Shown here in pieces: positions 4,416-43,309 of a DNA stretch of 64,000 bases (its first letter is position 1; the number at the start of each line of letters is the position of its first letter). The notes below the pieces were generated by a model. That model was not told where the DNA came from. It did not search any database and saw only the letters and a program-made list of their open reading frames with translations. This DNA is from Dehalococcoidia bacterium (GTDB lineage Bacteria > Chloroflexota > Dehalococcoidia > Lucifugimonadales > UBA3495), in the NCBI GenBank assembly GCA_965207865.1, contig CBDBNP010000008.1, positions 973,372 to 1,037,371 on the forward strand, given 5' to 3'. Position numbers and translations under genes: made by a program.

Positions 4416-4559
4416 CGCAATGCCTCCACTAACGTTTAGCCTACAATGGCTGGCCTGGCGCCAAGTCTACTCGCCGGTAGCTGGCCGCCGAAGGCCTGAA
4501 ACGGCAATTTACATCCAGAGGCCTACCTGCTGTCAGCCTTTTGTTCTTACGTGCTCTCT

Positions 4560-5035
4560 CTGGTGGTGCTTTCCTGACGCGGATGTCACCAACTGGGCGG
4601 TATTTAGGTTGAATCCTTTGCGCCCAAAGACGATGACTGGCCCCGCTTACCGGGCCATATTCATCCCTTCAAGTGTGTCTGGCAATTTGTCAGGCTCCCT
4701 CCGAGAGTTACCTCCACTGGTAATCAGGTCGGCCTGGCCTGTCCCCCAAGGCGATCGAGGTCCCACATTTGTCGGAATTGGTTGAGACCTTGATAGCGTC
4801 CAATAAGGGCAACCTCCTTGAGGAAATATGGTTCCTCTCCACCTCCGCAGTACTGAACTCCGACCCTATGGAAGTGAGGGCGTCCGAGACCACTGCGGTC
4901 TCGGCGTCGCCCTAGATATCGCTCCCGTCGCCTTGCTTACCTTCACCCTTTCTCAAGGGTGCATAACCATTAGGTCGACGGTCATAAACGGGGCAGCGCC
5001 CCGTGGTTAGGAGGGACCTCGATGCAAAACCAGAA
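4560..5035 (-). pseudogene. Decayed fragment of a family-5 solute-binding protein gene (paralogue of 2640-4415)
   Basis: The minus-strand translation is broken by stops and frameshifts but aligns by eye with the intact neighbour. Examples are NHGALPRL vs NPAALLPFL, EVERNHISSRRLPLLDAIKVSTNSDK vs EIEKNPNYFKEGLPFLDGVKVFVINDK, and FNLN..GDIRVRKA vs FNFN..DDPRVRRA. Confidence 0.55.
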
Positions 5036-5707
5036 GATGCCGACTGTAGCCTGTTGAATGAAGTCAGGCGGGCGCCGATCCTCCTGATTCTGAGATTCGT
5101 TGCATAATACTTACATTACTTTTAAGTGTCAATCGAAAGATAACACTCGACAATAAGCAATCTTTGTGTCGTATTGTTGCCTGAATCGCGACGAATTACG
5201 TAGAGAGGATGTTGGCCGTGAATTTCGTTGAAGAATATCGGCTAGCTGTGGTCCAAGCACTCAGCGTCGTGGTCTTGCGTTGATGCCCTGCGAGAATGTC
5301 AGGTCAACTGATCTGCACTATTGTCCATGCGGTGTGCTTACCCTCTTTGGCTGTCGGATCCTGGTGGCGCCTATTTCCTGAGGGGCGGGCTGTCCGCCAA
5401 GGAATAGCGGCGCATAGTGTTTCGATGGACGCCCTGCTCACTACCTTACTGATGCGAAGCCACTCTCACGGCCATAAAGAGAAATGGGCGTCCAGCGAGA
5501 CTTGGCAATCTCCGTATCACGGCCGTGGATTAAGAACCATTGGGATCGCGTCTGTAGCGGTCAACATAGTGTCGCTTGAGGTTGAAACAATTTAGACACC
5601 TGGATGTTCCGGTCTTTAAGTGTCGGCACCATCGCTCCGACTGCAGTTGGGGCATCTGTCGGCGACGCCACGGGCGACCCGAATGCTGTTGGCTGGCGCG
5701 GAGCAGC

Positions 5708-8700
5708 CTACCTCATAACGACGTAATTCCAGCCGGGGTACAGGGTGCGCCCTCGGAACTCCGTCCGACGGTCCACGCTGACTGCCAGGACGACCGGCGG
5801 GTTGGCGGCGAGGTCAACCGTCGTCAGCGTGTTGAACGCCGCGAGTTCCGGGTCAGGGTCGTAGAATTTCCACTGTTGGGACCGGCTGTCCAGCCACCAG
5901 ACCCTCTGCAATGCCCCGCTGGCAGCAAGCGCGCCGAAAATTTGCTGGACTGACTGGACACCGCTCCCCGGCTGTGGCGTGAGCGGGTCCTCCGTTAGCG
6001 GCACGAGGTTCCAGCCGGCGTAAAGTGGAAGGCCGCGGAATCGCTGGTTCCTGGTGACGTTAATGGCGACGACAGCCGGCGTATCCGATGCCAGGTTGAC
6101 CGTCCTCAGCGAGTTAAATGGCACCAACCGGGGCTCCGGATCATAGAACAGCCAGCTCTGATACCTCTCCACCAACCGCCAAACCCGGCCCAGTGTTCCG
6201 TTTGCCGAGAGTGGCTGGAACACCTGCTCAGCACGCTGAGTCGCAAGCGCCGGACGTGGCGGTGCCTGGGGAGCCGGGGGTACGATGAACCTTCCGCCCC
6301 CGCCACCAGTATTTCGCGGTGGTGGGGGTGGCGGAGGAGCCGCACTTGTGGTGCCTCTTCCGGTCGATGACCATCCTCCAGGGCCTGCAGAGTTTCTGGC
6401 ACGCACCTGGACCTCATACGTGGTGCTCGCGGAAAGGCCAGTAACTGTGTAGCTGCGACTGTTGCCAACGCTGACGGGTGACGGCCAGGAGATGCTGCCG
6501 TTCCGACGATAGCGTAGCTCGTAGCTCGTGGGCGAGGGCCCTCCCGACGGTGCCGACCACGTGATCCGCAGGCTGTTGGCAGACGCTGCGGTAACCGTCG
6601 GTGTCGAGGGCGTTCGTGGTATTACTGGGGGAGGCGGAGGCCCACCCTCGTCATCGTTGGTGATGGTGACTGTTGCGGTTGCCGCGCCACCAGTCAGGTA
6701 TGGAAGCCCTGAACTGGCGTAAGACAGTCTTACCGTAAAGCTTTCGTCCCCCTCGTCGTAGACGTCGTCCTGGACATCTACGATTATCTGTCTTTCAGCT
6801 CGATACCTCACTTCACCGCTAACGACCGTCGATGTGAAATCTGTGTGCAATATGGTTTCGGTTGCGCTCAAATGGGAGTAATCTGAGCCCTGCCGGGCAC
6901 TGCCCGCGCTCGTCGTAGCCCTTACGCTGAAGGAGACATCCGACAGCGGCGCCCCTTCCTCTGTAGTGGTGGCTTGGGCGTACATGATGACGCTCCCAGC
7001 GTCCTCGCTAACCGAATAGTCCGGCTGTTCCCAGCTCAAGGCTATCGGAACGAAATCGTCATCGGCGATCTTGACGGTGGCGATGGCCGAACCTCCCTGC
7101 AGGTGGAGTGGGCCGGGGTTGGCGTACTCAATCGTAACCGAGAGGTCCTCCTCGATTTCATCGGTGGTGTCGTCCACGATGGATACCGAGACCTGCTTTG
7201 CGGCGCGGTACCGGGGCTGGCCGTTGACGGTTGTGCGGCTAAAGTCGTTTCTGTCGAAGGTGATGGTATCGTCTACCTGCGTGTAATCGCCGGGCTGCGA
7301 CGCGGCGCCGTTTGCAGTGGAGACCGAAGCGTCGAAGGTGAAGCCGTCTTCCGGGCGCTTGTCCACGGTGGTGACAGCAAGAGCGCGCAGTGTGGCGCTG
7401 CCGTCGTCCTCGTCTACGGTAACGTCGGTCTGGTCCCAGCTGAGGGTCACCGGCACGTGCTCGTCGTCGTTGATTGTGATCGTCGCCGATTGCGGTCCTC
7501 CCCGGAGATGCGATAGCCCGGGAGTCTGGTAGTTCATTGTCACCCGGAAGTTTTCATCGGATTCGTCAGTAGTGTCGTCGTTGATGTCTATGGTGAAATC
7601 CCTGGTCGCTTGGTATAGCTGCTGCCCGTTAACGTCTGTCTGGCTGAAATCGCTGGCGACGAAGCTGGCCGAGGAGGGTGGAGGGGTGTAGTCGTCGGTC
7701 ACTGTCGTGCCGAGATCGGTGGTTGATAACACGAGCTCAAATTCAAAGTCGGCTTCGGGCGGCGCGTTAAGGGTGGTTGTGAACACCGCCGTCAGCTCCA
7801 CGCTGCCTACGTCCTCGTCTACTTCCAGCGTAGTCTCCTCCCACTGCATGGTGATGGGTATGTCGTCCGGCAGAGGGGTGCCGGTCCGGGTGCCGGACCA
7901 CTCCCCGTCGCCGGCGGAATTCACGGCCCGCACCTGCACGTCGTACTCCACGGCGTTGGTGAGGCTCCTGATTGTGTATTCCAGGTTGCCGCTTCTCCAG
8001 GCGTTATCCTGCACCGTCCAGTTGGAGTCCACCGTCTCGTCGGCGCTGGTCTCGATATACCGCACGTCGTAGGCGGTAATTCTCCCGCCTCCATTGTCGG
8101 AAGGCTCGGTCCAGGCAACGGCTAGTTCCCCGTCCCCACGAGTTACGTTGGTTATCGCTGGCGTCGACGGCTCGACAATGGTGGGCATGGCGGTCGTTAC
8201 CTCGGACCAAATGCCGATTCCCTCCGAATTGCGGGCCCGTACCTGAATTTCGTACTCGACGTTTCCTGAGAGACCCGTGATGCTGTGACTCCGGTTGCTG
8301 AGCGTTCCCACGCTGGTCTCTTCGGTCCAGTTGGCGTCACTCTTGTCTGTTGCATCCTTGCGTATGTAGCGCAGGTCGTAGGAGGTGACAGCGGACTTCC
8401 CGATGTCGGTAGGCTCCTTCCACTCGATGGTCAGGGTGCCCCCACTGGGCGTAACGTCATCAAAATCCGGCGCAGCCGGTTGGTAGCCATGGCCGTAGAT
8501 GGTGAGACCCCAGGACCTGAGACTTCCCGTCGTGCCTCTTTCCTCATCCCTTATACGCAGCGTCCACTCTCCGGCCGCAGCCTCGCCCAGAAATCGGGCG
8601 GAGCCGAAACGGAACTCTGAGGTCAAGCGGGCGTCGAGGGGGGCTGATGGAACCAGGGTGGAGACCTCTCCGGAGGGTGACTCCAACTCAACGTGTAGGT

Positions 8701-11632
8701 CGCGAAAACTGGAATGGTTGAAGTGGGTGTTGACCTCTACGAACTCGACGAAATCCACAAAGGAGCCTACGGTGAGGTTTGCCGTCACAGCGGTGGGCAT
8801 TCCCGATGTCGGGGCGTCCGGAATCGAAAGGTTGATGGCGCCTGATCCGGACGTTGTCTCCCGGAGAGGGGAGACGTTGTTCCAGCCCACGGCCAGGTCC
8901 GTGGCGGCCTTGGCGTCCACCATGCCGAAGCCGTACTCGTGGTTGAAGTCGTAGTGGTCCGTGGTGGAGCCGTACTTCAGCGCCCCCTGCTCCCAGCCGG
9001 TGTTGGCCGCGTCGTTCTTGCGGGCGGAGGCGGCCAGGATTAGCTTGACGTCCCGCCAGGTGAGGGCGGTGTTGGCCTCCCGCACCAGTGCAACTACGCC
9101 TGAGACGATGGGAGCGGCGGCGCTGGTGCCTCCCATCCGACCCCAGTACCTGTTGCCGTTGTCCGTGGTCGTTATTCTGGGCTGGCCGACTCTTCCGCTG
9201 CTGGAGGGGCCGCAGACCCACAGGTTGACGCCGGGCTCCGAGTAGTCGGCGCGCTTGTCGTCGTGGCCCACGGCGCAGACGGCAACGATGGCGTAGTAGT
9301 TGGCGATCTCGTCCAGGTTCGAGTCATCGTCATATTCGGCCCCGTTGCCAGCGGACCAGACGTAGACCACGCCTTTCCCGCCGTACCCGTTGGTTACGCC
9401 GTCCGTTACGGCCATTTCCCATGTTGAGACGACAGGGTTCGGCTCGCCGAAGTCCCTGGGCCCCCAGCTGTTGTTGGAAACGGCTGTGGTCTCGGAGTTG
9501 CGGGTCATGGCGTCTGCCCTGTTGGCGTCGCTCACTGCCTCAAGGTAGTTGTACCCGTAAATCGTGGCCTCGGGTGCCACGCCCCGCACTCCCTTGTCGT
9601 TGTCCTTTGCCGCGATAAGACCGGCCACCGCGGTGCCGTGCCATTCGAAATAGTCGTAAATGTCGGTATCGTCGGTGTTGTAGTTGTGATTCAGGGTGGT
9701 GTTCACATTGTCCTTGAGGTCCTCGTGGGTGTAGTGCATCCCGTCGTCCACCACCACCACGTTGATGCCGTCGCCGGTGTAGGTGGGCCACACATCCTCG
9801 ACCCCGATATCGAAACCGGCGCTGTTGCGGAACTGGTCGCTGTTGTTCAGGTGCCACTGGCATCCGTACAGGGGATCGTTGATGCCGGCGCTCCGGGAGA
9901 TGTTGCTGCAGCGGTCTTCGAAGTAGGTATACGAACCCTCCCGGATGGCCCTGACGGTGTAACGTCCGGTATCGGTGGCATCCTTGCCCTTCACCTTCAG
10001 GGTGTATGTGCCCGCGTCCAGCGTTCCCTGGAATACGAACCGGTCGCTGAAGTGAATCGAATCGACCGGGGCGTCGAAGTCGTTGGAATCTATGAGCTCG
10101 GCGCTGATATCGAGCCCCAGGCCCCGGCTCGTCCCTCCGATGATCACGTGGGTGGTCTCGTCCAGGGTCAGACTGAAATAGTCCTCATCCCCGGCAGGGC
10201 CGATCATGCCGCCAGCCACGTCGCCAAGGGTCAACTCCTGGGCATCGGCCTTCCTGCTGCCCGGCTCGGTGATGGTGTGGAGGTACACACTGAACGGCCC
10301 TTCGTATCTTTCGTCGAAGGAGCTGACGTTCAGATAGTAGGTCCCCGCCGCCAAGCTTCGCCGGATGAGAAAATTCCTGCTGCCGCCAGGAAGATAGCCG
10401 TCGTCATTGGATGCAACCAATTGGGAATTCCTGGTGTACAGCTTGCCCACGGTGTCCGGAAATCCGGACGACCGAATGGCAACCTCTGTAGTCTCTGCCA
10501 GAACTATTTTGAAGGAATCGGTTTCATCTTCAGGGTCAATGGTGCGACTGGCAGAGCCGTTTATAGGAATGGTGGGAGATTCGGTCCAACCTACGGGGTC
10601 CGGAAATGCCCGGACCCTGAGGGTGTATGGTTCGTCAGTGGCTCCGAACCCGGTGACCTTTACGTAATACGTGCCGGAATTGAGTTTGCGCCAAAGGAAG
10701 AAAGCTTCCGGGTTGGGTAAAACCCGGCCATAGTCGTTGCTCTTGATGAAATTGCCGTCGCTGTCCTGCAACTCACCCACCGTGTCGAGGTCTCCCTGGG
10801 TGTAAATCCAGTAGTCGGCAGTTTCTGACACGGTGAAGCTGACGTAGTCCTCGTCGTCACTGGGGTCGATAACGCCCCACACTCTGTCCCCTGCGGAGAT
10901 GCTGGTGGCGTTGGTGCGGTCGGCGCCATGATCGCCAGGGGTAGCGGCGGTGGTGGCCGACCATGCGCCGTCAACGTCGTCCTCATCGACGGCCCGCACC
11001 TGCACGTCGTAGCCAGTTTCGTTGGTCAGGCCGGTGATGGCGTGAAAGAGGCTGCCGTCTCCGTCCTCCCAGGCGTCCTCCTCCACGGTCCAGTTGGAAT
11101 CCACCGTTTCGTCGGAGCTGGTCTCGATGTGGCGCACGTCATAGGCCTTGACGCCGGTGGTGATGCCGGCAGGCGCACTCCAGGCGACGTAAACGGCGCG
11201 GTCATCGCCGCGCACGGTATCCAGGGAGGGCGCAGGGAGGGCCGGCGTCCCGACCGTCGTTGCGGACCATGCTCCGTCGCCGTTGGCGTTGACGGCCCGG
11301 ACCTGCACGTCGTATTGGGTGCCGTTGTCCAGACCGGTGATGGTGTACTCCAGCGCCCCGGAGGTCCAGGCGTTGTCGACCACGGTCCAGTTGGCGTCGG
11401 CTTTGTCTGTGGCATCGCTGTTAATGTGTCGCACGTCGTAGGCGGTGATGCCCGTTTCGCCGGTAGGAGCGGTCCACTCGACTTTGAGCTGCTTGTCATC
11501 CGAGGTTACGGAGTCAATGGTGGGCGCAGCGGGAGTCGTCTGAGCCCTGGCGTAGCCCAAGACCAGAATGAGGCATAGCAGAGCGCCCCCTGCCACGGCA
11601 GCAAGTCTTACCGGGCTGAGCCACGCGTTCAT
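5708..11632 (-). CDS. Giant secreted kexin-like subtilase (S8 + P-domain) with FN3, PPC-like and Calx-beta domains and a duplicated C-terminal module
   Basis: This is a 1974-aa ORF. In order it contains:
- an N-terminal signal (LLCLILVLGYARAQT)
- 2 FN3 domains
- 3 PPC-like jelly rolls (DEDY.., GTYY.KV)
- an S8 triad (VVVVDDG, WHGTAVAG, GGTSAAAPIVSG) with the kexin-type GCQWHLNN motif
- a P-domain (GEWTLRIRDEERGTTGSLRSWGLTIYGH)
- 2 FN3 domains
- 3 Calx-beta domains (DDTTDE..E.F)
- 1 FN3 domain
- a Pro/Gly linker
- two copies of a roughly 80-aa C-terminal module. Confidence 0.9.
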   Translation of the reverse strand: MNAWLSPVRLAAVAGGALLCLILVLGYARAQTTPAAPTIDSVTSDDKQLKVEWTAPTGETGITAYDVRHINSDATDKADANWTVVDNAWTSGALEYTITGLDNGTQYDVQVRAVNANGDGAWSATTVGTPALPAPSLDTVRGDDRAVYVAWSAPAGITTGVKAYDVRHIETSSDETVDSNWTVEEDAWEDGDGSLFHAITGLTNETGYDVQVRAVDEDDVDGAWSATTAATPGDHGADRTNATSISAGDRVWGVIDPSDDEDYVSFTVSETADYWIYTQGDLDTVGELQDSDGNFIKSNDYGRVLPNPEAFFLWRKLNSGTYYVKVTGFGATDEPYTLRVRAFPDPVGWTESPTIPINGSASRTIDPEDETDSFKIVLAETTEVAIRSSGFPDTVGKLYTRNSQLVASNDDGYLPGGSRNFLIRRSLAAGTYYLNVSSFDERYEGPFSVYLHTITEPGSRKADAQELTLGDVAGGMIGPAGDEDYFSLTLDETTHVIIGGTSRGLGLDISAELIDSNDFDAPVDSIHFSDRFVFQGTLDAGTYTLKVKGKDATDTGRYTVRAIREGSYTYFEDRCSNISRSAGINDPLYGCQWHLNNSDQFRNSAGFDIGVEDVWPTYTGDGINVVVVDDGMHYTHEDLKDNVNTTLNHNYNTDDTDIYDYFEWHGTAVAGLIAAKDNDKGVRGVAPEATIYGYNYLEAVSDANRADAMTRNSETTAVSNNSWGPRDFGEPNPVVSTWEMAVTDGVTNGYGGKGVVYVWSAGNGAEYDDDSNLDEIANYYAIVAVCAVGHDDKRADYSEPGVNLWVCGPSSSGRVGQPRITTTDNGNRYWGRMGGTSAAAPIVSGVVALVREANTALTWRDVKLILAASARKNDAANTGWEQGALKYGSTTDHYDFNHEYGFGMVDAKAATDLAVGWNNVSPLRETTSGSGAINLSIPDAPTSGMPTAVTANLTVGSFVDFVEFVEVNTHFNHSSFRDLHVELESPSGEVSTLVPSAPLDARLTSEFRFGSARFLGEAAAGEWTLRIRDEERGTTGSLRSWGLTIYGHGYQPAAPDFDDVTPSGGTLTIEWKEPTDIGKSAVTSYDLRYIRKDATDKSDANWTEETSVGTLSNRSHSITGLSGNVEYEIQVRARNSEGIGIWSEVTTAMPTIVEPSTPAITNVTRGDGELAVAWTEPSDNGGGRITAYDVRYIETSADETVDSNWTVQDNAWRSGNLEYTIRSLTNAVEYDVQVRAVNSAGDGEWSGTRTGTPLPDDIPITMQWEETTLEVDEDVGSVELTAVFTTTLNAPPEADFEFELVLSTTDLGTTVTDDYTPPPSSASFVASDFSQTDVNGQQLYQATRDFTIDINDDTTDESDENFRVTMNYQTPGLSHLRGGPQSATITINDDEHVPVTLSWDQTDVTVDEDDGSATLRALAVTTVDKRPEDGFTFDASVSTANGAASQPGDYTQVDDTITFDRNDFSRTTVNGQPRYRAAKQVSVSIVDDTTDEIEEDLSVTIEYANPGPLHLQGGSAIATVKIADDDFVPIALSWEQPDYSVSEDAGSVIMYAQATTTEEGAPLSDVSFSVRATTSAGSARQGSDYSHLSATETILHTDFTSTVVSGEVRYRAERQIIVDVQDDVYDEGDESFTVRLSYASSGLPYLTGGAATATVTITNDDEGGPPPPPVIPRTPSTPTVTAASANSLRITWSAPSGGPSPTSYELRYRRNGSISWPSPVSVGNSRSYTVTGLSASTTYEVQVRARNSAGPGGWSSTGRGTTSAAPPPPPPPRNTGGGGGRFIVPPAPQAPPRPALATQRAEQVFQPLSANGTLGRVWRLVERYQSWLFYDPEPRLVPFNSLRTVNLASDTPAVVAINVTRNQRFRGLPLYAGWNLVPLTEDPLTPQPGSGVQSVQQIFGALAASGALQRVWWLDSRSQQWKFYDPDPELAAFNTLTTVDLAANPPVVLAVSVDRRTEFRGRTLYPGWNYVVMR
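8484..9850 (-). other. S8 catalytic domain plus proprotein-convertase P-domain within the 5708-11632 gene
   Basis: The catalytic codons read directly as Asp 9746-9748 (first D of DDG), His 9638-9640 (WHGTA) and Ser 9122-9124 (GTSAA). The P-domain ends at LTIYGHGY, around 8484-8507. Confidence 0.8.
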
Positions 11633-11850
11633 GCGGTTATTAACTCGGCGGAAAGATTAGCGCTCACAAAACAATTGGGGTACTACGGATGAGGTTACCT
11701 ACAGGGCAACGGTCATTTCGGGACTTCCTCTCTCGCCCAGTTGGGGCTGGCCACTTCCACGCCATCCAGGACCGCCAGCGTGTTGGCCAACTCCAGCGAG
11801 GGGAAACCCGGCTCCGTCTGGATAAAGAAGCCGTTGACGGCATAACTCAA

Positions 11851-12549
11851 TTAAGAAACGCGGTCCATCTTGATACTGTTGGTCGAGAAAAAGGCGTCCG
11901 TTTCTGCCTCGCTCCACTCGGAATCAAGAATCAGGAGCACGCCGCCGGGCAACGTCATGAGTTCACCGTACTCCGAGCGAAATACAGGCAGCGCATCGTC
12001 TTGCGGCTGTCCTCCCACACCCCTGGCCACTCTGTTCTCAACTCCATCAGCCGCCACTACGTCGCGAGGCAACCCGTCAGAACCCTGGTCCACTGCGAGG
12101 TCGGTCTGGAGATATACGGTGAGAGTCCTGTCCCCGTCTTCCCACGTATAGCTGCGGCCCTGCACGTCACCCTCAGGCGACCCGCCCTCCTTGGAGGGAT
12201 CATGGCCTTCGGCGGTTATGCCTCCATCCCGGGCTGATGATACTGGAGGATCAGACGACTCAAACTCTAGCCCATCGTCGATTGTTGGGTTTGGAGTGGG
12301 CGTGGGAGCAGCCGAGGGTGTCGCCGGGTATGCTGCGGTGATGGCAGTCACGGTTGGGGGCGCCGTGACGGCGGCCGGTGCAGGGCTACCCGCGTGCGTT
12401 GGGGAGGCGGTTGGCGCCTGCAGTACTGCCGCAGTGTTGGCGGGTGGGGCAACTTGCTCCGTCGGCGAGGGCGACCCGCATCCCGCCAGGAGGGCAGACA
12501 TACTTGGCACAATGACAACGAAAGTCAGCAAGACCGCAAGTTTTCTCAT
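11851..12549 (-). CDS. Secreted lipoprotein with a Pro/Ala/Thr-rich linker; the ORF is ended by an in-frame TAA after which the reading frame stays open
   Basis: This 232-aa ORF has the lipobox MSALLAGCGS. After the TAA at 11851-11853, another 45 sense codons follow in the same frame (LSYAVNGFFIQTEPGFPSLELANTLAVLDGVEVASPNWAREEVPK) up to the TGA at 11713-11715. Confidence 0.6.
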   Translation of the reverse strand: MRKLAVLLTFVVIVPSMSALLAGCGSPSPTEQVAPPANTAAVLQAPTASPTHAGSPAPAAVTAPPTVTAITAAYPATPSAAPTPTPNPTIDDGLEFESSDPPVSSARDGGITAEGHDPSKEGGSPEGDVQGRSYTWEDGDRTLTVYLQTDLAVDQGSDGLPRDVVAADGVENRVARGVGGQPQDDALPVFRSEYGELMTLPGGVLLILDSEWSEAETDAFFSTNSIKMDRVS

Positions 12550-14589: not shown

Positions 14590-17502
14590 TCATTGCAACT
14601 CGGAGGGCGGCCGGTACGCGGGCCTCTTACTCTGATAGCCCCAGCAGGCCACGCGGCCGTTGGTTCTCACTGCACAAGAAGCAATGTTGCCGGCGCTAAC
14701 ATCCACGAAGTCTGTGTTCGACGGCGTAGTGGAACGATCCTGGTACCCCCAGCAGTATGCTCGTCCGTCCGTTTTTATCCCACAGGTAGACGCAATCTCC
14801 GCTCGTTCTGCCACAACGGTGACTGCTACGAAGTCGGCATTTTCTTCTTCACTGGGCTTCTTGATGCTGGCTTCAACGCCCCAGCAGAGCATACTTCCGT
14901 CGGTTTTCACCCCACAGGCATAATGTTCGCCCACGCCTATGTCCCGGAAGCCGGTATTATCCTGCGGGAATCCATTTGTCACCCCCTGGCTGCCCCAGCA
15001 AAAGAGGGAGCTGTCCTGCTTCAACCCACAGAAATTGTCATCGCTGGACGATATGGCGGTGAAGGTCTTTGCTACTTTATCGGCCCCGGTGATCTCAGTT
15101 GGGAGATCGTCAATGGTTGATTGAAGGCCCCAACAGACCATGTTGCCGCTTATCTTCACTCCGCAGCTGACGCGGCTGCCGGCGACGACCAGGCGATAGT
15201 CGGTATTGGGGTTGGTCGCGTCGTCCGGAACCGTGGCCTCGCCTACATTGGTGTCGTATTCAGCCCCCCAGCAGGCAATGCTGCTATCCCGCCGCACGCC
15301 GCAGGCGTGATAACTCTGAGGGCCCATGCTGATGCTGGTGAAGGAGCCGGTTGCCACTTTGTCAACACCGTAGCCGTCACCATCCCAGCAGAGGACAGCG
15401 CCGTGGGGCTTCAGCACGCAAGCGGAGCCATAGCCGACGACAATGGTGTGTTCGGCGGTGGTCAGCGGCAGGGGCGGCGCCAGCGCCAGGACGGTATCCT
15501 TCCCCCAACAACTCACGCCGCCGTCCAGTTTGATTCCACAGGTATAGAAATCTCCTGCCGCGATGGAGGCGAAAGCGCCGTCCGGGGCCTGTAGCTTCTC
15601 GTCGGCAGTGTCGCCCCAACAAGTCACCTCACGGCTGCCCTCGACAATGCCGCAGGCGTGGGTCTTCGCCACCACCAGGTAGGCGAACACCGCATCCTCC
15701 GTGACCTGTAGCTTCTCGTCGGCAGTGTCGCCCCAACACATCACCTCGCGGCTGCCCTCGACAATGCCGCAGGCGTGGGTCTTCGCCACCACCAGGGAGG
15801 CGAACACCGCATCCTCAGTGACCTCGGTCCTGGGATTCATCGTGTCCCCCGACACGTTGCCCCAGCAGACCACACGTCCGCTGGCGTCCCGGGAGCAGGC
15901 AAAGTCCTCCCCCACTCCGAGGTCGTACGCCGGAATCAGTTCGGACGGCGGTGCGGACGCATCGCCTGGGTCGGCGTTCATATCGTCGGGGGGAGGACCA
16001 CCCCAGCAGACAACCAACCCGTCGGTCTTTCGCCCGCAGGCGTGATAATCGCCCACGGCGAAAGCGATGAACGTAGCGTCGGGGACGGCCAGTTTGTCCT
16101 GGCCGGCATCGCCCCAGCAAACTACCGTGCCGTCGCTCTTGCTTCCGCAGGCGTGACCGGCGCCGGCCGCCACAGTGGAGAAGTCCGTGTTGCTCGACGG
16201 CGTGCTGGTGAACGCGCCCCAGCACGATACTGCACCCCCAGAAGCCTTAACGGCGCAGGAAAAGTTCTTGCCGGCGGCCACCGTACCGAAGCCGGAATTG
16301 GACGCGGGAAGAGTGGTTTCTCTTTCCGTATTGTCGCCCCAGCAATCCAGGATCCCGTCGGTTTTTGCGCCGCATGCATGGTCGTGGCCAACACTGACCG
16401 TGGCGAAACCGCTGGTGTCGGTGGGCGTATCGGAACGGGCGCCCCAGCAGACCAGGGTTCCATCGTCCTTGACCCCGCAGGCATGGTCGTTTCCCACACT
16501 CAGCATGTCGAACTCGGAGTTGCTGGCCGGGGTGTCCACACGACTGCCCCAGCAGACCACGCTGTCGTCGGTTTTGAGGCCGCACGCATGGCTGCCGGCG
16601 CTCACCGCCTCGAATAAATGACCCGATGGGGCAATGACCGGTGAGTCGGCTGCTCCGCCCCAGCATTGCACGGCCCGATCGGGAGTGATGGCGCAGGAGA
16701 AGTTGCTGCCGGCGGCTACCGACTGGCCCTGGGCAGGAGTGACCATCGGCAGCAATGAACCTGCTTCGCCTCGCGGGCCAGCTTCCCCCTGTGGGCCGGA
16801 GGGACCGGCAGGCCCCGGTGGACCGGCAACGCCGGGCGGGCCAGGCTCCCCTTTTGGCCCGGGGGAACCGGGCGGTCCGGCAGGCCCTCGTGGGCCGGGC
16901 TCCCCCTGTGGCCCGGGTGAACCAGGAGGCCCAGGAGGCCCCGCAGAGCCACTTCCGCCACCGCTGGGGCCTTGAGGCCCCTGTGGACCGGCGGGTCCGG
17001 TAGAGCCACCGCCACCGCCACCGCCGCCGCTGGGTCCTTGTGGCCCCTGTGGCCCAGTAGGCCCGACGGGGCCGGTGTCTCCTGGCGGACCAGACGGGCC
17101 GCGTTCTCCGGCTATTCCGGGAACTCCTGTTGGGCCAGGAAGACCGTCCAAGCCGGCGGGGCCCTCAGGCCCTGAGCGACCACGATCTCCCCTGTCGCCC
17201 TTCTCTCCCTTCGGCCCCGGTACCCCGGTGGCTCCGGGCGGGCCCGGTGGCCCAGCAGAACCTGGAACTCCCGCTGAGCCGGTGAGTCCACGTGGGCCGG
17301 GTGGGCCCTCGGGCCCCATAAGACCGGGAGCACCCGTATCGCCCTTTTGTCCCGTCGGGCCGGGCACCCCCGTAGCCCCGGGCGGTGAGTCCGGAAACGC
17401 GTCGGTAGAATCCTCGCCGAGAAGGCCACATCCTGAGACGAACAACGCTACAGCAAGTATTAGCAGCCTAGGAACTACGCGGCGTGGGGGGGGAAATTTC
17501 AC
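14590..17502 (-). CDS. Lipoprotein with a collagen-like triple-helix region and about 18 RCC1-like beta-propeller repeats
   Basis: This 970-aa ORF has the lipobox [10 protein letters not shown]. About 205 aa of uninterrupted G-X-Y repeats follow, apart from two Gly runs. After that come 18 repeats of the form h.aG..HACG.K.DG.vvCWG. Confidence 0.85.
15589..15822. repeat. 117-bp tandem duplication (2 copies, a few mismatches) inside the RCC1-like region
   Basis: Copy 1 (15589-15705) and copy 2 (15706-15822) both start ctgtagcttctcgtcggcagtgtcgcccc. They encode VTEDAVFA[S/Y][18 protein letters not shown][M/T][11 protein letters not shown] twice. Confidence 0.9.
16759..17379 (-). other. Collagen-like G-X-Y region of the 14590-17502 gene
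   Basis: Residues 42-248 read [19 protein letters not shown]...[13 protein letters not shown]. This region produces the Pro/Gly-rich shadow ORFs listed on both strands there. Confidence 0.85.
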
Positions 17503-18345: not shown

Positions 18346-20700
18346 GTGAGCAGCAACAGCCAACCGGAGCGGGAGATCGAGGCTCTGCGGGAGCGGATCG
18401 CCGCCCTCTCCAATGCCATCCTGCGGGTGAACGCCAGCCTGGACGTCGACACCGTACTGCACGAGATCGCCGAGTCTGCCCGCGCGCTGACAGGGGCCCG
18501 CTTAGCCGTCATAGCCACCATTGACGAGGCCCGGGCACTGGAGCACATCGTCCTCTCTGGCTTGACCCCGGAAGAGACGCGGCAGGTTGAGGGGTGGACC
18601 GACGCTCTGCGAGTCTTCGAGGTTCTGCGGGACGTGCCGTCGCCCTTGCGGGTGGCGGACATGCCCACTTATATCGCGTACATGGGCTTCAATCCCGATG
18701 GCGTAATCATCAATTCCTTCTTGGGAGCGCCCATACACCACCGGGGCGTACAGGTGGGCAACTTCTTTCTGGGGGAGAAGCAGACCGGTCCTGAGTTCAC
18801 CGACGAGGACGAGGAGGTGCTGGTGCTGTTCGCGGCGCAGGCGGCCTCGGCGGTGGCCAACGCCCGCACCCACCGGGCCGAGCAGGGGGCGCGAGCGGAC
18901 CTGGAGGCCCTGATCGAGACCTCGCCAGTGGGCGTGGTGGTGTTCGACGCCCGCAGCGGGCGGCCGGTGTCGATGAACCGGGAGGCGCGGCGCCTGGCCG
19001 CGCGCCTGCTCCCGGCTGGCGGCCCAGCGGAGGAGGTGGTACAGGTGGCCACCTGCCGCTTCTCCGACGGGACCGAAATCTTGGTCAGCGAGTTGACAAA
19101 TCCCCGAGCACTGGCTAAAGCCCGGACGCTGCGGGCCGAGGAGATAGTGACCTCGGTCCCCGATGGGCGGAGCTTCACCACGCTGGTCAACGTGACTCCC
19201 ATCTATTATGGGACTGGGGATGAGGTCAAATCAGTGGTGGTGACGCTGCAGGACCTGGCGCCGCTCCAGGAACTGGAACGGTTGCGGGCGGACTTCCTGG
19301 GTATGGTGAGCCACGAGTTGCGTGGCCCGCTCACCGCCATCAAGGGCTCGGCCGCCACCCTGATGGAGGAATCCGACCGGCTGGACCCGGCGGAACAGCA
19401 CGAGTTCCATCGCATTATCCAGGAGCAGGCCGACCACATGCGGGGGCTCATCGGCGACCTGCTGGATGCCGGGCGCATCGAGGCGGGCACACTGTCGGTG
19501 GCTCCCGAGCCCTCCGAGGTGGCCGCGCTGGTGGAGGGCTCGCGCAGCACCTTCCTGTCCGCTGGCGGACGGCATACCGTGATCATCGACCTGCCACCGG
19601 ACCTGCCCCGCGTGATGGCCGACCGGCGGCGCATAGTGCAGGTGCTGAACAACCTGCTCTTCAACGCCGCCCGGCACTCGCCCGACTCTGCCCCCATTCG
19701 GGTTGAAGCCGTGCGCGACGGCTCGCAAGTTGCCATCTCCGTCCGGGACGAGGGGCGGGGTGTGGCCCCGGAGCAGCTGCCCCACCTGTTCCGCAGGTAC
19801 GCCCTCGACGACGAGGACGGCGGCCGGGCGATGGCTGGCATGGGCCTGGGTCTCATCATATGCCGGGGGCTGGTTGAGGCCCACGGCGGCCGCATCCGGG
19901 CCGAGAGTGGCGGGACCGGTCAGGGCGCCCGGTTCACCTTCACCTTGCCCGTGGCCGAGGATGCCCGGCAGAGCGAGCCCTCAGCCTTGGCACAGTCGCC
20001 CGGCACACCTCCGGCGAGCGAGACTGCCCGCATCCTGGTGGTGGACGACGACCCGCAGACCCTGCGCTACGTGCGCCACACGCTCACCGAGGCGGGCTAT
20101 GCCGTGGCAGTGACGGGCGACCACGAGCACCTCTCCCGCACCGTCCGCGCCGAGAGGCCGCACCTGGTCCTGCTCGACCTGGTGCTGCACGGCGCCGACG
20201 GCATCGAGCTGCTGAGAAGCGTCCCCGAGCTGGCCGGTCTGCCGGTGGTATTCATCTCCGGCTACGGACGGGACGAGACCGTCGCCGAGGCCCTGAGGGC
20301 CGGGGCCGCCGACTACCTGGTCAAGCCCTTCTCGTCCACCGAGCTGACCGCTCGCGTGGGGGCGGCGCTGCGCCGGGCCACCCGCCCCGAGCCCTTCGCC
20401 CTGGGAGAGTTGGCCATCTACTACGAGGATCGGCGGGTGACAGTGGCCGGTCGCCCGGTCGAGCTGACCGCGACGGAATTCGCGCTTCTGCGCCTGCTCT
20501 CGCAGAATGCGGGACGTGTGGTGGATTACGAAACCCTGCTAGGCCAGGTGTGGAGCGGACGCAAGGAGGGGCAGGTCAACCTGGTGCGCAACTTCGTCAG
20601 GAAGCTTCGCGCCAAGCTGGGCGACGACGCCCAGAGCCCGGCCTGGATATTCAGTGTGCGCGGCATCGGTTACCGCATGCCCGACCCCCGCGACCCCTGA
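18346..20700 (+). CDS. Fused sensor histidine kinase, receiver and OmpR/PhoB-type winged-helix DNA-binding domain (GAF-PAS-HisKA-HATPase-REC-wHTH)
   Basis: This 784-aa ORF starts at a GTG. Motifs read by eye are:
- a GAF-like N-terminus
- the H-box FLGMVSHELRGPLTAI
- N/G boxes VLNNLLFNAARHS and GMGLGLIICRGLVEAHGG
- the receiver ILVVDDDP..LVLLDLVL..KPF
- the C-terminal LTATEFALLRLLSQNAGRVV...VRGIGYRM. Confidence 0.85.
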   Translation: MSSNSQPEREIEALRERIAALSNAILRVNASLDVDTVLHEIAESARALTGARLAVIATIDEARALEHIVLSGLTPEETRQVEGWTDALRVFEVLRDVPSPLRVADMPTYIAYMGFNPDGVIINSFLGAPIHHRGVQVGNFFLGEKQTGPEFTDEDEEVLVLFAAQAASAVANARTHRAEQGARADLEALIETSPVGVVVFDARSGRPVSMNREARRLAARLLPAGGPAEEVVQVATCRFSDGTEILVSELTNPRALAKARTLRAEEIVTSVPDGRSFTTLVNVTPIYYGTGDEVKSVVVTLQDLAPLQELERLRADFLGMVSHELRGPLTAIKGSAATLMEESDRLDPAEQHEFHRIIQEQADHMRGLIGDLLDAGRIEAGTLSVAPEPSEVAALVEGSRSTFLSAGGRHTVIIDLPPDLPRVMADRRRIVQVLNNLLFNAARHSPDSAPIRVEAVRDGSQVAISVRDEGRGVAPEQLPHLFRRYALDDEDGGRAMAGMGLGLIICRGLVEAHGGRIRAESGGTGQGARFTFTLPVAEDARQSEPSALAQSPGTPPASETARILVVDDDPQTLRYVRHTLTEAGYAVAVTGDHEHLSRTVRAERPHLVLLDLVLHGADGIELLRSVPELAGLPVVFISGYGRDETVAEALRAGAADYLVKPFSSTELTARVGAALRRATRPEPFALGELAIYYEDRRVTVAGRPVELTATEFALLRLLSQNAGRVVDYETLLGQVWSGRKEGQVNLVRNFVRKLRAKLGDDAQSPAWIFSVRGIGYRMPDPRDP

Positions 20701-41464: not shown

Positions 41465-42052
41465 CTAGCCACCGTCCATGTCGAGGAGAACCCGAAGTAT
41501 CTCCTCATTCCCCACGGAGACCGCCCGCTCAAGGGCCGAGTCTCCGAAGGCGTTGCGTAAGTCGGCGTCTGCTCCGGCCTCGACCAAGGTGCGCACAATT
41601 TCTACATCGCCCTTGAAAATAGCACGGTGGAGGGCTGGGTCTCCGAAGGCGTTCTTTGCATTCACATCGGCCCCAAGCTCCACGAGGAGACTCACCATGC
41701 TCCCGTGGTCCTTGTCAATGGCCTCATGAAGGGGCGAATCCCCGAAGACGTCCTTTGCATTGACGTCAGCGCCTCCTTCGACAAGGACCCTCACCAGCGC
41801 ATGATCGTTCTTGTCAACGGCCGCGTGCAGCGCCCGACCGCCGGATGGCAACGCCGGTTCATCGTTGGGGCCCGGGCTGGAGGACACTACCCCGTTGGAG
41901 GCGGGGTTTGTCGAGGAATCCTGACTCGGTTCGTTGGTCAGTAAGCCGGCAGTCAGCACGGCGAGCAGGGCCAGCGCCAGCAGGGACACTCCACCCGCAA
42001 CCAGTTTCATTGACCGTCCGGAAACCAGGCGTCTGGCGGACATCTCGCTCAT
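41465..42052 (-). CDS. Ankyrin-repeat membrane-anchored or secreted protein
   Basis: I prefer the internal start MSEMSARR at 42052 because the longer ORF overlaps the upstream gene. The TM/signal segment is LVAGGVSLLALALLAVLTAGLL. Four repeats follow (ALHAAVDKNDHALVRVLVEGGADVNAKD, SPLHEAI..). Confidence 0.8.
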   Translation of the reverse strand: MSEMSARRLVSGRSMKLVAGGVSLLALALLAVLTAGLLTNEPSQDSSTNPASNGVVSSSPGPNDEPALPSGGRALHAAVDKNDHALVRVLVEGGADVNAKDVFGDSPLHEAIDKDHGSMVSLLVELGADVNAKNAFGDPALHRAIFKGDVEIVRTLVEAGADADLRNAFGDSALERAVSVGNEEILRVLLDMDGG

Positions 42053-42116
42053 CTCGAAGCCTCTCCGGGACACATTTGAGATCGGCTTTGGTTGTTTGCC
42101 AGGCTCCGGCCTGCCA

Positions 42117-43208
42117 TTATTCCGTCGCCCCCGCAGCCAGAAGTATATCCTCGATTTCGGTGTGCCCTCGCCAGCGCGCAACATGCAGCAGCGATTCTCC
42201 GTTGTCCCTCTTCGCATTGAGGTCGGCTCCGGCTTCCACGAGGATTCTGAGTGCCTCCGGTTCGTTTCGCCATACTGCGGTGTAAAGCAGGTGATCGCCA
42301 TCTGAGTCTCTGGAGTCGGCCATTGCGCCAGCAGCGATCAGAATCTTGAGCGCCTCCGATTTGTCTCGCCAGATGGCAGTGTACAGGAGGGGATTGTCCT
42401 CGGAATCCACCGCATTGACGTTGGCTCCCGCCTCGACAAGAATATTCAGTGCCTCGAGTTTGCCCTGCCAGATGGTGGTGTACAGAAGCGGGTCGCCGTC
42501 GTCGTCTCTGGCATCAACGTCCGCCCCGGCATCCACGAGGATCTTCAGCGCCTCCAGTTTGTCCCGCCAGATGGCAGTGTACAGCAGGGGGTCTCCGTCC
42601 GAGTCCCTGGCGTCAACGTCTGCCCCTGCGTCGACGAGGATCTGCACCTTTTCCGGTTCGGCCCGCCAGACAGCGGTGTACAGGAGCGGGTCCCCGTCGC
42701 CGTCTCTGGCGTTTACGTCGGCTCCCGCCGCAACGAGACTTCGTACCTCGTCGACGGTGCCCGCCCAGATTGCTCGGTAAAGGGGCGGGTCCCCGTCGCC
42801 GTCTGTAGCGTTGACGTCTGCTCCCGCGTCGACGAGGATCTGCACCTTTTCCGGTTCGGCCCGCCAGACAGCGGTGTACAGGAGCGGGTCCCCGTCGCCG
42901 TCTGTGGCGTTGACGTCTGCTCCCGCCGCAACGAGACTTCGTGCCTCGTCGACGGTGCCTGCCCAGATTGCTTGGTAGAGGGGCGGGTCTTCTTGGGGCA
43001 TCGGCGTGCCAGCCGAATCTGAGGCCGCCCTTGGTACCTGCTCAGGGACGGCCGTCGGGTTGGGGACAGAGGTGGGGACCGGCGTCGCGGCTTCCTTGGG
43101 GGACGAGCCTCTGATGCCGCATGCCCATATCAGCAACACTACCAGCAGAACGACGACGCCTGCAGCAAGCGCCTTGAACCCGTTGCTCCTGAAAAAAGAG
43201 AGTCTCAT
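42117..43208 (-). CDS. Ankyrin-repeat lipoprotein (about 9 tandem 33-aa repeats)
   Basis: An ATG at 43208 lies 5 nt after AGGAG. The lipobox is LLIWACG. The repeats read DGDPLLYTAVWRAEPEKVQILVDAGADVNA. Confidence 0.85.
   Translation of the reverse strand: MRLSFFRSNGFKALAAGVVVLLVVLLIWACGIRGSSPKEAATPVPTSVPNPTAVPEQVPRAASDSAGTPMPQEDPPLYQAIWAGTVDEARSLVAAGADVNATDGDGDPLLYTAVWRAEPEKVQILVDAGADVNATDGDGDPPLYRAIWAGTVDEVRSLVAAGADVNARDGDGDPLLYTAVWRAEPEKVQILVDAGADVDARDSDGDPLLYTAIWRDKLEALKILVDAGADVDARDDDGDPLLYTTIWQGKLEALNILVEAGANVNAVDSEDNPLLYTAIWRDKSEALKILIAAGAMADSRDSDGDHLLYTAVWRNEPEALRILVEAGADLNAKRDNGESLLHVARWRGHTEIEDILLAAGATE
42621..42990. repeat. 198-bp (two-ankyrin-repeat) tandem duplication, about 1.9 copies, few mismatches
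   Basis: The string gcgtcgacgaggatctgcaccttttccggttcggcccgccagacagcggtgtacaggagcgggtccccgtcgccgtct recurs at an offset of 198 nt (copies starting at 42621 and 42819). Confidence 0.85.
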
Positions 43209-43309
43209 ATTCACTCCTGCACGGGCCCCGTACCGACCCAGCCAGTGCGAGTTAGTCACGAATGGGAGCCATAGTGGCTCTTGGGGCTAACAGGCTCCCT
43301 CCGCCTGGT

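Follow-up and report, generated by a model that had tools for sequence, protein, structure and literature searches.

A small upstream gene product as the candidate detached pro-domain of a giant kexin-type subtilase from a Dehalococcoidia bacterium

Pro-domain-assisted folding of subtilases and convertases is the textbook case of an intramolecular chaperone, and kexin-branch subtilases are generally dependent on a pro-domain. Subtilase pro-peptides belong to the ferredoxin-like beta-alpha-beta-beta-alpha-beta fold class. Helpers that act on other hydrolases include Lactococcus PrtM, a PrsA-type helper for the S8 cell-envelope proteinase PrtP, and Pseudomonas Lif, an all-helical steric lipase foldase; we know of no description of either one inserting a C-terminal residue into an active site. 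The present study concerns a kexin-type subtilase of 1974 residues and the small gene upstream of it, here called UP, from a Dehalococcoidia bacterium (assembly GCA_965207865.1, contig CBDBNP010000008.1, positions 973,372 to 1,037,371). The window is this whole analysed stretch of 64,000 nucleotides, and positions are numbered from its first letter. The closest described counterpart is the Aeromonas sobria protease ASP, a kexin-like, pro-peptide-deficient enzyme that is matured by an external chaperone, ORF2, encoded adjacent to it (PMC5638518; PDB 3WQB). ORF2 serves as both chaperone and temporary inhibitor, and its C-terminal Gln-Pro-Lys is positioned at the catalytic site of ASP (PMC5638518). 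Literature searches for a natural trans-encoded helper of a kexin-like enzyme gave only this pair, and searches on the present protease/UP family in Dehalococcoidia or sponge symbionts found nothing relevant. To our knowledge, ASP/ORF2 is the only natural example.

The reading favored here, with a probability of roughly 55%, is that UP is the detached pro-domain of the protease and acts on it in trans as a foldase and inhibitor. The arrangement resembles ASP/ORF2 and the classical cis pro-peptides, but the helper is an unrelated, unannotated family. A preliminary description, made from the letters of the stretch, had presented the folding of a convertase-type enzyme without a cis pro-peptide as an open question. 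The missing cis pro-peptide is borne out, but the question is not wholly open, given the ASP/ORF2 precedent and UP as a candidate. The answer probably lies in the upstream gene product, the sole conserved neighbor with pro-domain-like properties.

The protease is encoded by a single open reading frame (5708-11632, minus strand, stop included) and its core is of the kexin subtype, with a P-domain directly following the catalytic domain, both as the preliminary description had it. A phmmer search of residues 560-1080 against the PDB placed Kex2 first (E 1.3e-50) and furin next (E 4e-46), in one continuous alignment over catalytic and P domains; Aeromonas ASP was the third-best PDB group (E 4e-32), and S8A subtilisins followed at about 1e-18. 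In a Pfam scan of the whole protein, Peptidase_S8 matched residues 620-879 (E 5e-43) and P_proprotein (PF01483) matched residues 963-1045 (E 7.5e-19, 68 bits against a cutoff of 21). Pfam, the PDB search and residue mapping together place the catalytic domain at approximately residues 586-950 (8783-9877, minus strand), and the P-domain, which also aligns with that of Kex2, at residues 951-1052 (8477-8782, minus strand). The motifs GCQWHLNN, VVDDG, WHGT, and GGTS are all present. Mapping through the PDB alignment, with Kex2 numbering checked on D175 and H213, matches the D of VVDDG, the H of WHGT, the N of SAGNG, and the S of GGTSAAAP to Kex2 D175, H213, N314, and S385, the catalytic triad and oxyanion Asn. 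Among the 120 best database matches (44-93% identity), which form the family sample, the His, Asn, and Ser are invariant and the Asp is kept in 119. The AlphaFold2 (AF2) model of a relative, P0392, agrees with the assignment: its catalytic and P part matches Kex2 and furin with E 1e-41 and template-modeling (TM) scores of 0.88-0.91.

The acidic, calcium-linked S1 pocket of the kexin/furin convertases (MEROPS S8B) is also retained. Equivalents of Kex2 D277, D320, D325, and E350 are all kept in the window protease and occur in 103, 115, 109, and 116 of the 120 homologues, respectively. The protease therefore resembles these convertases in its catalytic-plus-P core, in its triad with the oxyanion Asn, in having an acidic S1 pocket, and in the N-terminal motif ...DPL(F/Y)xxQWHL. 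It differs in lacking a cis S8_pro-domain, in being a bacterial and, by prediction, extracellular enzyme with adhesion-type modules, and in its S2/S4 acidic residues, which are not all kept: D176 is present, but Kex2 D210 is replaced by Phe, D211 by Glu, and E255 by Arg. From these residues the protease most likely cleaves after Lys or Arg; strict dibasic or R-X-K/R-R specificity is unlikely because the S2/S4 acidic residues are incompletely conserved. As a kind, bacterial kexin-like subtilases are already known, and the protease adds a new member to them. The earlier wording, "eukaryote-like," needs correction: proteases that combine S8 with a P-domain are not specifically so, and the present one belongs to a large Dehalococcoidia and metagenome family in which all 120 best homologues carry both domains.

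No pro-domain was found within the protease. Pfam scans of the whole protein and of segments at E values up to 0.1-1 gave no I9 or S8_pro-domain match, in agreement with the earlier claim that an I9-type pro-peptide is missing. The N-terminus is wholly filled by other elements: a putative signal peptide read from the sequence (residues 1-30, MNAWLSPVRLAAVAGGALLCLILVLGYARA, with cleavage before Q; 11543-11632), FN3 domains 1 and 2 (Pfam fn3; residues 32-232; 10937-11539), and three PPC-like beta-sandwich modules (residues 233-565; 9938-10936), all on the minus strand. The same N-terminus is found in 13 of 14 related loci. PPC (PF04151) is weak on the whole protein, at 22.3 bits and below the cutoff of 25.9. 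When segments are scanned separately, PPC2 reaches 26.6 bits, above the cutoff, and PPC1 23.0 bits, below it; PPC3 has no Pfam match and is recognized solely by 33% identity to PPC1 over 109 residues (E 2e-12). A D-x-D-Y/S-F motif recurs in each module. Only a linker of about 20 residues, containing a Cys, separates PPC3 from the kexin-like core, leaving no room there for a pro-domain.

UP lies directly upstream. Its full reading spans 11713-12549 (minus strand), 80 nucleotides upstream of the protease and on the same strand, and the gap in the window holds no terminator-like site. An orthologue of the protease is found in 14 species-level genomes, all annotated "MAG: Dehalococcoidia bacterium," and UP is the sole window neighbor conserved in all 14 loci, on the same strand and with 43-88% identity. 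In the 13 related loci with an intact protease start, the UP stop and the protease start are 45-83 nucleotides apart. The order of UP followed by protease is also kept in three distant pairs (L015, L016, and L017), and no other UP copy was found within the window. The architecture is the same in 15 of 15 UP proteins: a lipoprotein signal, a Pro/Thr/Ala linker of variable length, and a domain of about 150 residues. The start, MRKLAVLL...LLAGC, reads as a lipobox signal in all 15, and its predicted lipidation residue, Cys24, is invariant in an alignment of 14 sequences.

The window copy of UP is interrupted. As read, it encodes 232 residues (11851-12549, minus strand), comprising the lipoprotein signal, the linker, and the N-terminal two thirds of the conserved domain, and ends at a TAA (11851-11853) where relatives have a GAA or GAG Glu codon, a single G-to-T change. 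Beyond it the frame continues for 45 intact and conserved codons, LSYAVNGFFIQTEPGFPSLELANTLAVLDGVEVASPNWAREEVPK, to a TGA stop at 11713-11715 (11713-11850, minus strand); in 13 of 14 related genomes the intact gene includes this stretch, and UP there runs about 45 codons past the position of the window stop and ends in ...NGFFIETEPGFPSLELANTLAVLDGVEVSSPNW(A/G)RE(E/A)VPK. By comparison with the closest relative, L001, the conserved 150-residue domain, which is the candidate detached pro-domain, spans the premature stop (11716-12165, minus strand), and it is 90% identical to the L001 domain over all 150 residues. If the stop is real, this copy is without the last beta-alpha-beta elements and the tail.

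Further evidence comes from UP relatives that are fused to their proteases. UP has 1086 homologues, none of them named and all but one without a Pfam domain, which form 824 representative clusters at 50% identity. In at least 10 proteins, including P0295, P0315, P0318, P0359, P0392, and P0396-P0400, the UP domain is found in cis, N-terminal to PPC-S8(-P). In P0295, for example, the UP domain occupies residues 136-279, S8 residues 863-1150, and the P-domain residues 1206-1284. Two to three PPC modules stand between the UP domain and the catalytic domain in these fusions, and D-x-D-Y-F motifs were read in P0295, P0359, and P0392. The fusions share a junction in which ...SPNWWREVEA(K/R) is followed by (T/Q)(A)DDHGD... 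and then by PPC, placing a Lys or Arg at position +7 after the SPNW Trp. This basic residue corresponds to the exact end position of the split UP proteins, and the PPC1 region of the window protease opens with the same DHG motif, directly after FN3 domain 2. Because both the tail end and the DHG motif match the fusion junction, the split form looks like the outcome of gene fission at a processing site. To judge from the sequences, the protease looks to have gained a new signal peptide and two FN3 domains after the fission.

The length and the last residue of the UP tail are constrained. In 129 of 134 representative UP members with SPNW, the chain stops exactly 7 residues past the Trp. The terminal residue in these 129 is Lys in 57, Arg in 48, Asn in 7, Glu in 6, Gln in 4, Asp in 3, and Ser and Tyr in 2 each; it is therefore basic in 105. 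Close homologues of the window UP are Lys-terminal in 117 of 120 cases, mostly as (T/V)-P-K. The terminal residue, moreover, co-varies with the S1 pocket of the partner. Where the terminal or +7 residue is Lys or Arg (22 pairs or fusions), Asp always stands at the position of Kex2 D320, and in most cases also at 277 and 325. Of the seven pairs or fusions with Tyr, Thr, Ala, or Gly (L015, L016, L018, P0359, P0395, P0399, and P0401), none has Asp at 277 and one has it at 320. As an example, P0413 ends in ...TESTLY, and 48 nucleotides on is encoded a 3053-residue S8 and P protein with Arg, Gly, and Asn at the three S1 positions. Some UP proteins of 540-800 residues (P0410, P0411, P0413, P0417, P0418, and P0349) carry fn3 or LRR between the signal peptide and the UP domain, yet their chains also stop 7 residues past the SPNW Trp. 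P0416 (1326 residues) combines cadherin modules with a partial UP domain and has the same ending.

Under the favored reading, maturation could proceed as follows. The protease would be a Sec-exported, calcium-dependent endoprotease of the kexin/furin type (S8B-like) whose core is carried on an FN3/PPC/Calx-beta stalk. UP would also be exported and would be held on the external side of the membrane by its lipid anchor and flexible Pro/Thr linker. Outside the cell, the C-terminal domain of UP would bind the unfolded or partly folded catalytic domain and template its folding. The 7-residue tail, ...R-E-E-V-P-K-COOH, would then fill subsites S6-S1 in the manner of a cleaved pro-peptide, the terminal Lys reaching into the acidic S1 pocket. 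Bound UP may keep the enzyme latent as a temporary inhibitor and, in the window clade, bound to the surface, until release or degradation of UP frees the active protease.

This scheme parallels ASP/ORF2 (PDB 3HJR and 3WQB) in several respects. Both involve a bacterial kexin-like S8 enzyme with a P-domain, no cis pro-peptide, and a small adjacent gene, and the ORF2 tail ends in Pro-Lys, as does the UP tail in close homologues. There are also clear differences. ORF2 is encoded downstream of asp and UP upstream of the protease, and no similarity of sequence or fold was detected between the two helpers. UP is a predicted lipoprotein with a long linker, and the Dehalococcoidia protease is about three times larger than ASP, with its FN3, PPC, and Calx-beta modules. 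Finally, cis-fused versions of UP exist. For ORF2 we know of none.

Comparison with the I9 pro-peptides of subtilisin BPN'/E, proteinase K, and Tk-subtilisin gives a similarly mixed picture. An AF2 model of the UP domain, with a predicted local distance difference test (pLDDT) score of 63 and a predicted TM score (pTM) of 0.62, suggests an N-terminal beta-meander followed by a beta-alpha-beta-beta-alpha-beta unit and a disordered tail. In the model of the cis fusion P0392 (pLDDT 80, pTM 0.74), the predicted beta-alpha-beta-beta-alpha-beta half of the UP domain reaches pLDDT values of 84-95. As in I9 pro-peptides, such a unit would lead into a short tail, the final residue of which would take S1, and in the cis-fused relatives the UP domain is N-terminal to the protease. 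UP differs from I9 pro-peptides in having no detectable homology to them, an extra N-terminal beta-meander of about 65 residues, and a gene and signal peptide of its own; in the fusions, moreover, the PPC modules intervene. The kexin/furin pro-domains offer another contrast, since the candidate pro-domain tail has Pro at P2. Like PrtM and Lif, UP would be a membrane-tethered helper that acts outside the cytoplasm and is encoded beside a large secreted hydrolase. However, no PrtM- or Lif-type family appeared among the UP Pfam results, and the predicted structure of UP is largely beta, including a beta-alpha-beta-beta-alpha-beta unit.

Several results weigh against UP being a detached pro-domain. 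Pfam scans of 14 UP members gave no match, and a UP profile searched against the PDB at E values up to 10 returned lipoprotein signal peptides only, ORF2 (3WQB chain B) not being among them. Profile comparison by hhalign gave probabilities of 0.3-0.6% against the pro-domains of furin and PC1, and of 0.03% against the I9 pro-peptides of BPN', subtilisin E, and proteinase K. A Foldseek search with the UP domain model, itself of pLDDT 63, found nothing significant; the best matches were to generic ferredoxin-like domains, with E of at least 0.18, and no ORF2 structure was among the matches listed. The fold match of the UP domain is generic. In the P0392 model, the predicted cleavage junction between Lys and Thr is disordered, with pLDDT below 50. 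The co-variation is imperfect, as L011 and P0392 have a Lys end but keep only Asp320, and its sample is phylogenetically clustered, the Lys-ending pairs being largely one clade. A regular-expression screen of representative UP members shorter than 700 residues and starting with Met found a lipobox-like N-terminus in only 36 of 143; the predicted tethering is therefore a feature of the window clade and not of the whole UP family. The UP domain may also not be specific to S8 enzymes and could serve other hydrolases: in P0415 (654 residues) it occupies residues 108-251, N-terminal to a protein with PF00144, the beta-lactamase family, in precomputed Pfam annotation. Lastly, the truncation of UP beside an intact protease reading frame argues for recent decay or dispensability.

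Decay is the alternative that survives best, although it remains unlikely. The window locus would be a non-functional remnant in which the UP nonsense codon disables maturation and the protease frame has not yet degraded. One base change costs UP its last 45 residues, tail included, and independent lesions are found among the relatives. In L006, UP has a TAG at another Glu codon (about 8152-8154) and the protease a frameshift in PPC3 (about 9794-9797), a case of co-decay in which both partners are broken. The protease of L013 has a frameshift in the catalytic domain (about 10810), and that of L009 an apparent in-frame stop (about 12068-12070). Such protease breaks in 3 of 14 related genomes suggest that the locus is often inactivated or else that the assemblies contain errors. 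Against decay in the window, both the 5.9-kb protease frame and the 45 codons past the stop remain intact and conserved, with the UP domain at the identity to L001 given above; the TAA could also reflect a strain polymorphism or an error of assembly or consensus. The UP/protease pair in this genome may be impaired; decay, however, concerns the state of the window copy and not the nature of the system.

Somewhat less probable still is that UP chiefly tethers the protease to the surface and keeps it latent, with folding needing no helper or relying on general chaperones. This would account for the lipobox with its invariant Cys and long flexible linker in all 14 UP loci, and for a protease in which neither the sequence nor Pfam reveals a recognizable membrane or cell-wall anchor; a Lys tail with a free carboxylate also fits product-type inhibition. 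Such a role does not sit well with the scarcity of lipobox-like N-termini among representative UP members, with cis fusions that put the UP domain at the place of a pro-peptide, or with the ASP precedent for dependence on a pro-domain or chaperone.

It is improbable that the PPC (or FN3) modules of the protease serve as its intramolecular chaperone, leaving UP an unrelated role such as adhesin or substrate: PPC3 does stop about 20 residues ahead of the catalytic core, and PPC-like modules are kept in every family member inspected, split and fused, with PF04151 listed for many homologues, but a PPC module is a beta-sandwich without a tail reaching the P1 position, no basic residue or processing motif lies between PPC3 and the core, fused relatives still have the UP domain N-terminal to their PPCs, which hence do not replace it, and the strict UP-protease pairing, fixed 7-residue tail, and S1 co-variation would go unexplained. 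The idea of a PPC domain in the pro-peptide position, which the preliminary description raised as something to test, is accordingly not supported; the PPCs of the cis-fused relatives come after the candidate pro-domain and before the catalytic domain.

A wider form of the detached pro-domain reading can be put forward tentatively. UP may represent a large and so far unannotated family of subtilase pro-domains, genetically detached and found both fused and split, whose 7-residue "ruler" tail feeds a co-evolving residue to S1, and whose lipoprotein versions could combine foldase, inhibitor, and reversible membrane anchor of a giant surface protease. If true, this would be a mechanism of maturation and retention not described for subtilases.

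The rest of the protease is modular, and the layout given in the preliminary description, with FN3, PPC, and Calx-beta modules and two FN3 and three PPC-like domains before the S8-P core and three FN3, three Calx-beta, and a duplicated module after it, was confirmed by Pfam and segment scans. The P-domain is followed by FN3 domains 3 and 4 (Pfam fn3; residues 1054-1255; 7868-8473), three Calx-beta domains (Pfam; residues 1256-1662; 6647-7867), FN3 domain 5 between poly-Pro/Gly linkers (residues 1674-1762, with the best fn3 stretch at 1674-1756; 6347-6613), and two copies of a C-terminal module (residues 1800-1885 and 1886-1974; 5711-6235), all on the minus strand. On the whole protein, fn3 (PF00041) matches in five stretches (E 4e-55, 184 bits in total) and Calx-beta (PF03160) in three (E 6.7e-18); scanned by segment, the Calx-beta domains score 35.7, 37.2, and 35.0 bits against a cutoff of 27. 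The FN3, PPC, and Calx-beta modules are probably spacers and calcium-dependent binding modules.

Self-comparison shows the two C-terminal copies, each of about 87 residues, to be 53% identical (E 2e-28). The module has no Pfam match, and no further copies were found within the window. Only 10 of the 120 best homologues carry it, each time at the extreme C-terminus, and it is an optional add-on to the protease. A 796-residue protein with a PPDK_N (ATP-grasp-like) domain in L013 (16856-19246, plus strand) also ends in it, and because of this the module appears to be a portable C-terminal unit rather than protease-specific. Across the 120 homologues, fn3 lies on both sides of the S8 and P domains, mostly together with PPC and Calx-beta, and the C-termini vary (DUF11, cadherin, and others); PF28033 is listed for most. 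The family is also spread over uncultured metagenome assemblies, and the window protein has no exact match in the public gene index.

On the other side of the protease, 1.3 kb separates it from an SBP_bac_5 gene (4416-5707), an unusually long gap for a compact bacterial genome that is also present in L001. Neither of its strands contains a credible open reading frame, Rfam gave no match at gathering thresholds, and no ORF2-like gene was thus found downstream of the protease. The downstream Opp-type ABC transporter was dropped as a part of the system, being syntenic only in L001; the transporter, a 287-residue open reading frame, and an RCC1 gene are common to the window and that relative alone. 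The RCC1 gene (14590-17502, minus strand) encodes a eukaryote-like protein of 970 residues with a collagen triple-helix repeat region and about 10 RCC1 repeats. Host-associated bacteria, sponge symbionts for example, typically carry repertoires of eukaryote-like repeat proteins. Nearby, a 784-residue fusion of GAF, PAS, HisKA, and HATPase with a receiver and an OmpR-type DNA-binding domain (18346-20700, plus strand) places a full two-component system in one polypeptide.

The window encodes a second giant secreted subtilase of 2051 residues (43310-49465, minus strand), composed of S8, five CARDB, four fn3, LRR, and F5/8-type C domains. It is without a P-domain, and no UP-like domain lies nearby. 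Its neighbors on the same strand (41465-43259 and 49521-50195) are a LuxR-type response regulator gene just upstream and two ankyrin-repeat genes just downstream, and a DDE transposase gene (DUF772 and DDE_Tnp_1; 50470-52299, plus strand) adjoins the locus.

If the detached pro-domain reading is true, the UP family would be a second, unrelated, and much larger example of a trans-acting helper after ASP/ORF2. It would provide a natural test case of subtilase folding and control in which cis and trans forms exist side by side, with extra domains inserted between pro-domain and catalytic domain and with a terminal residue that tracks S1 as a readable specificity code. It would also connect maturation with surface tethering in a testable way, in a group of uncultured, presumably marine Chloroflexota, and would give annotators a reason to name more than 1000 unnamed small proteins that are essentially without Pfam annotation.

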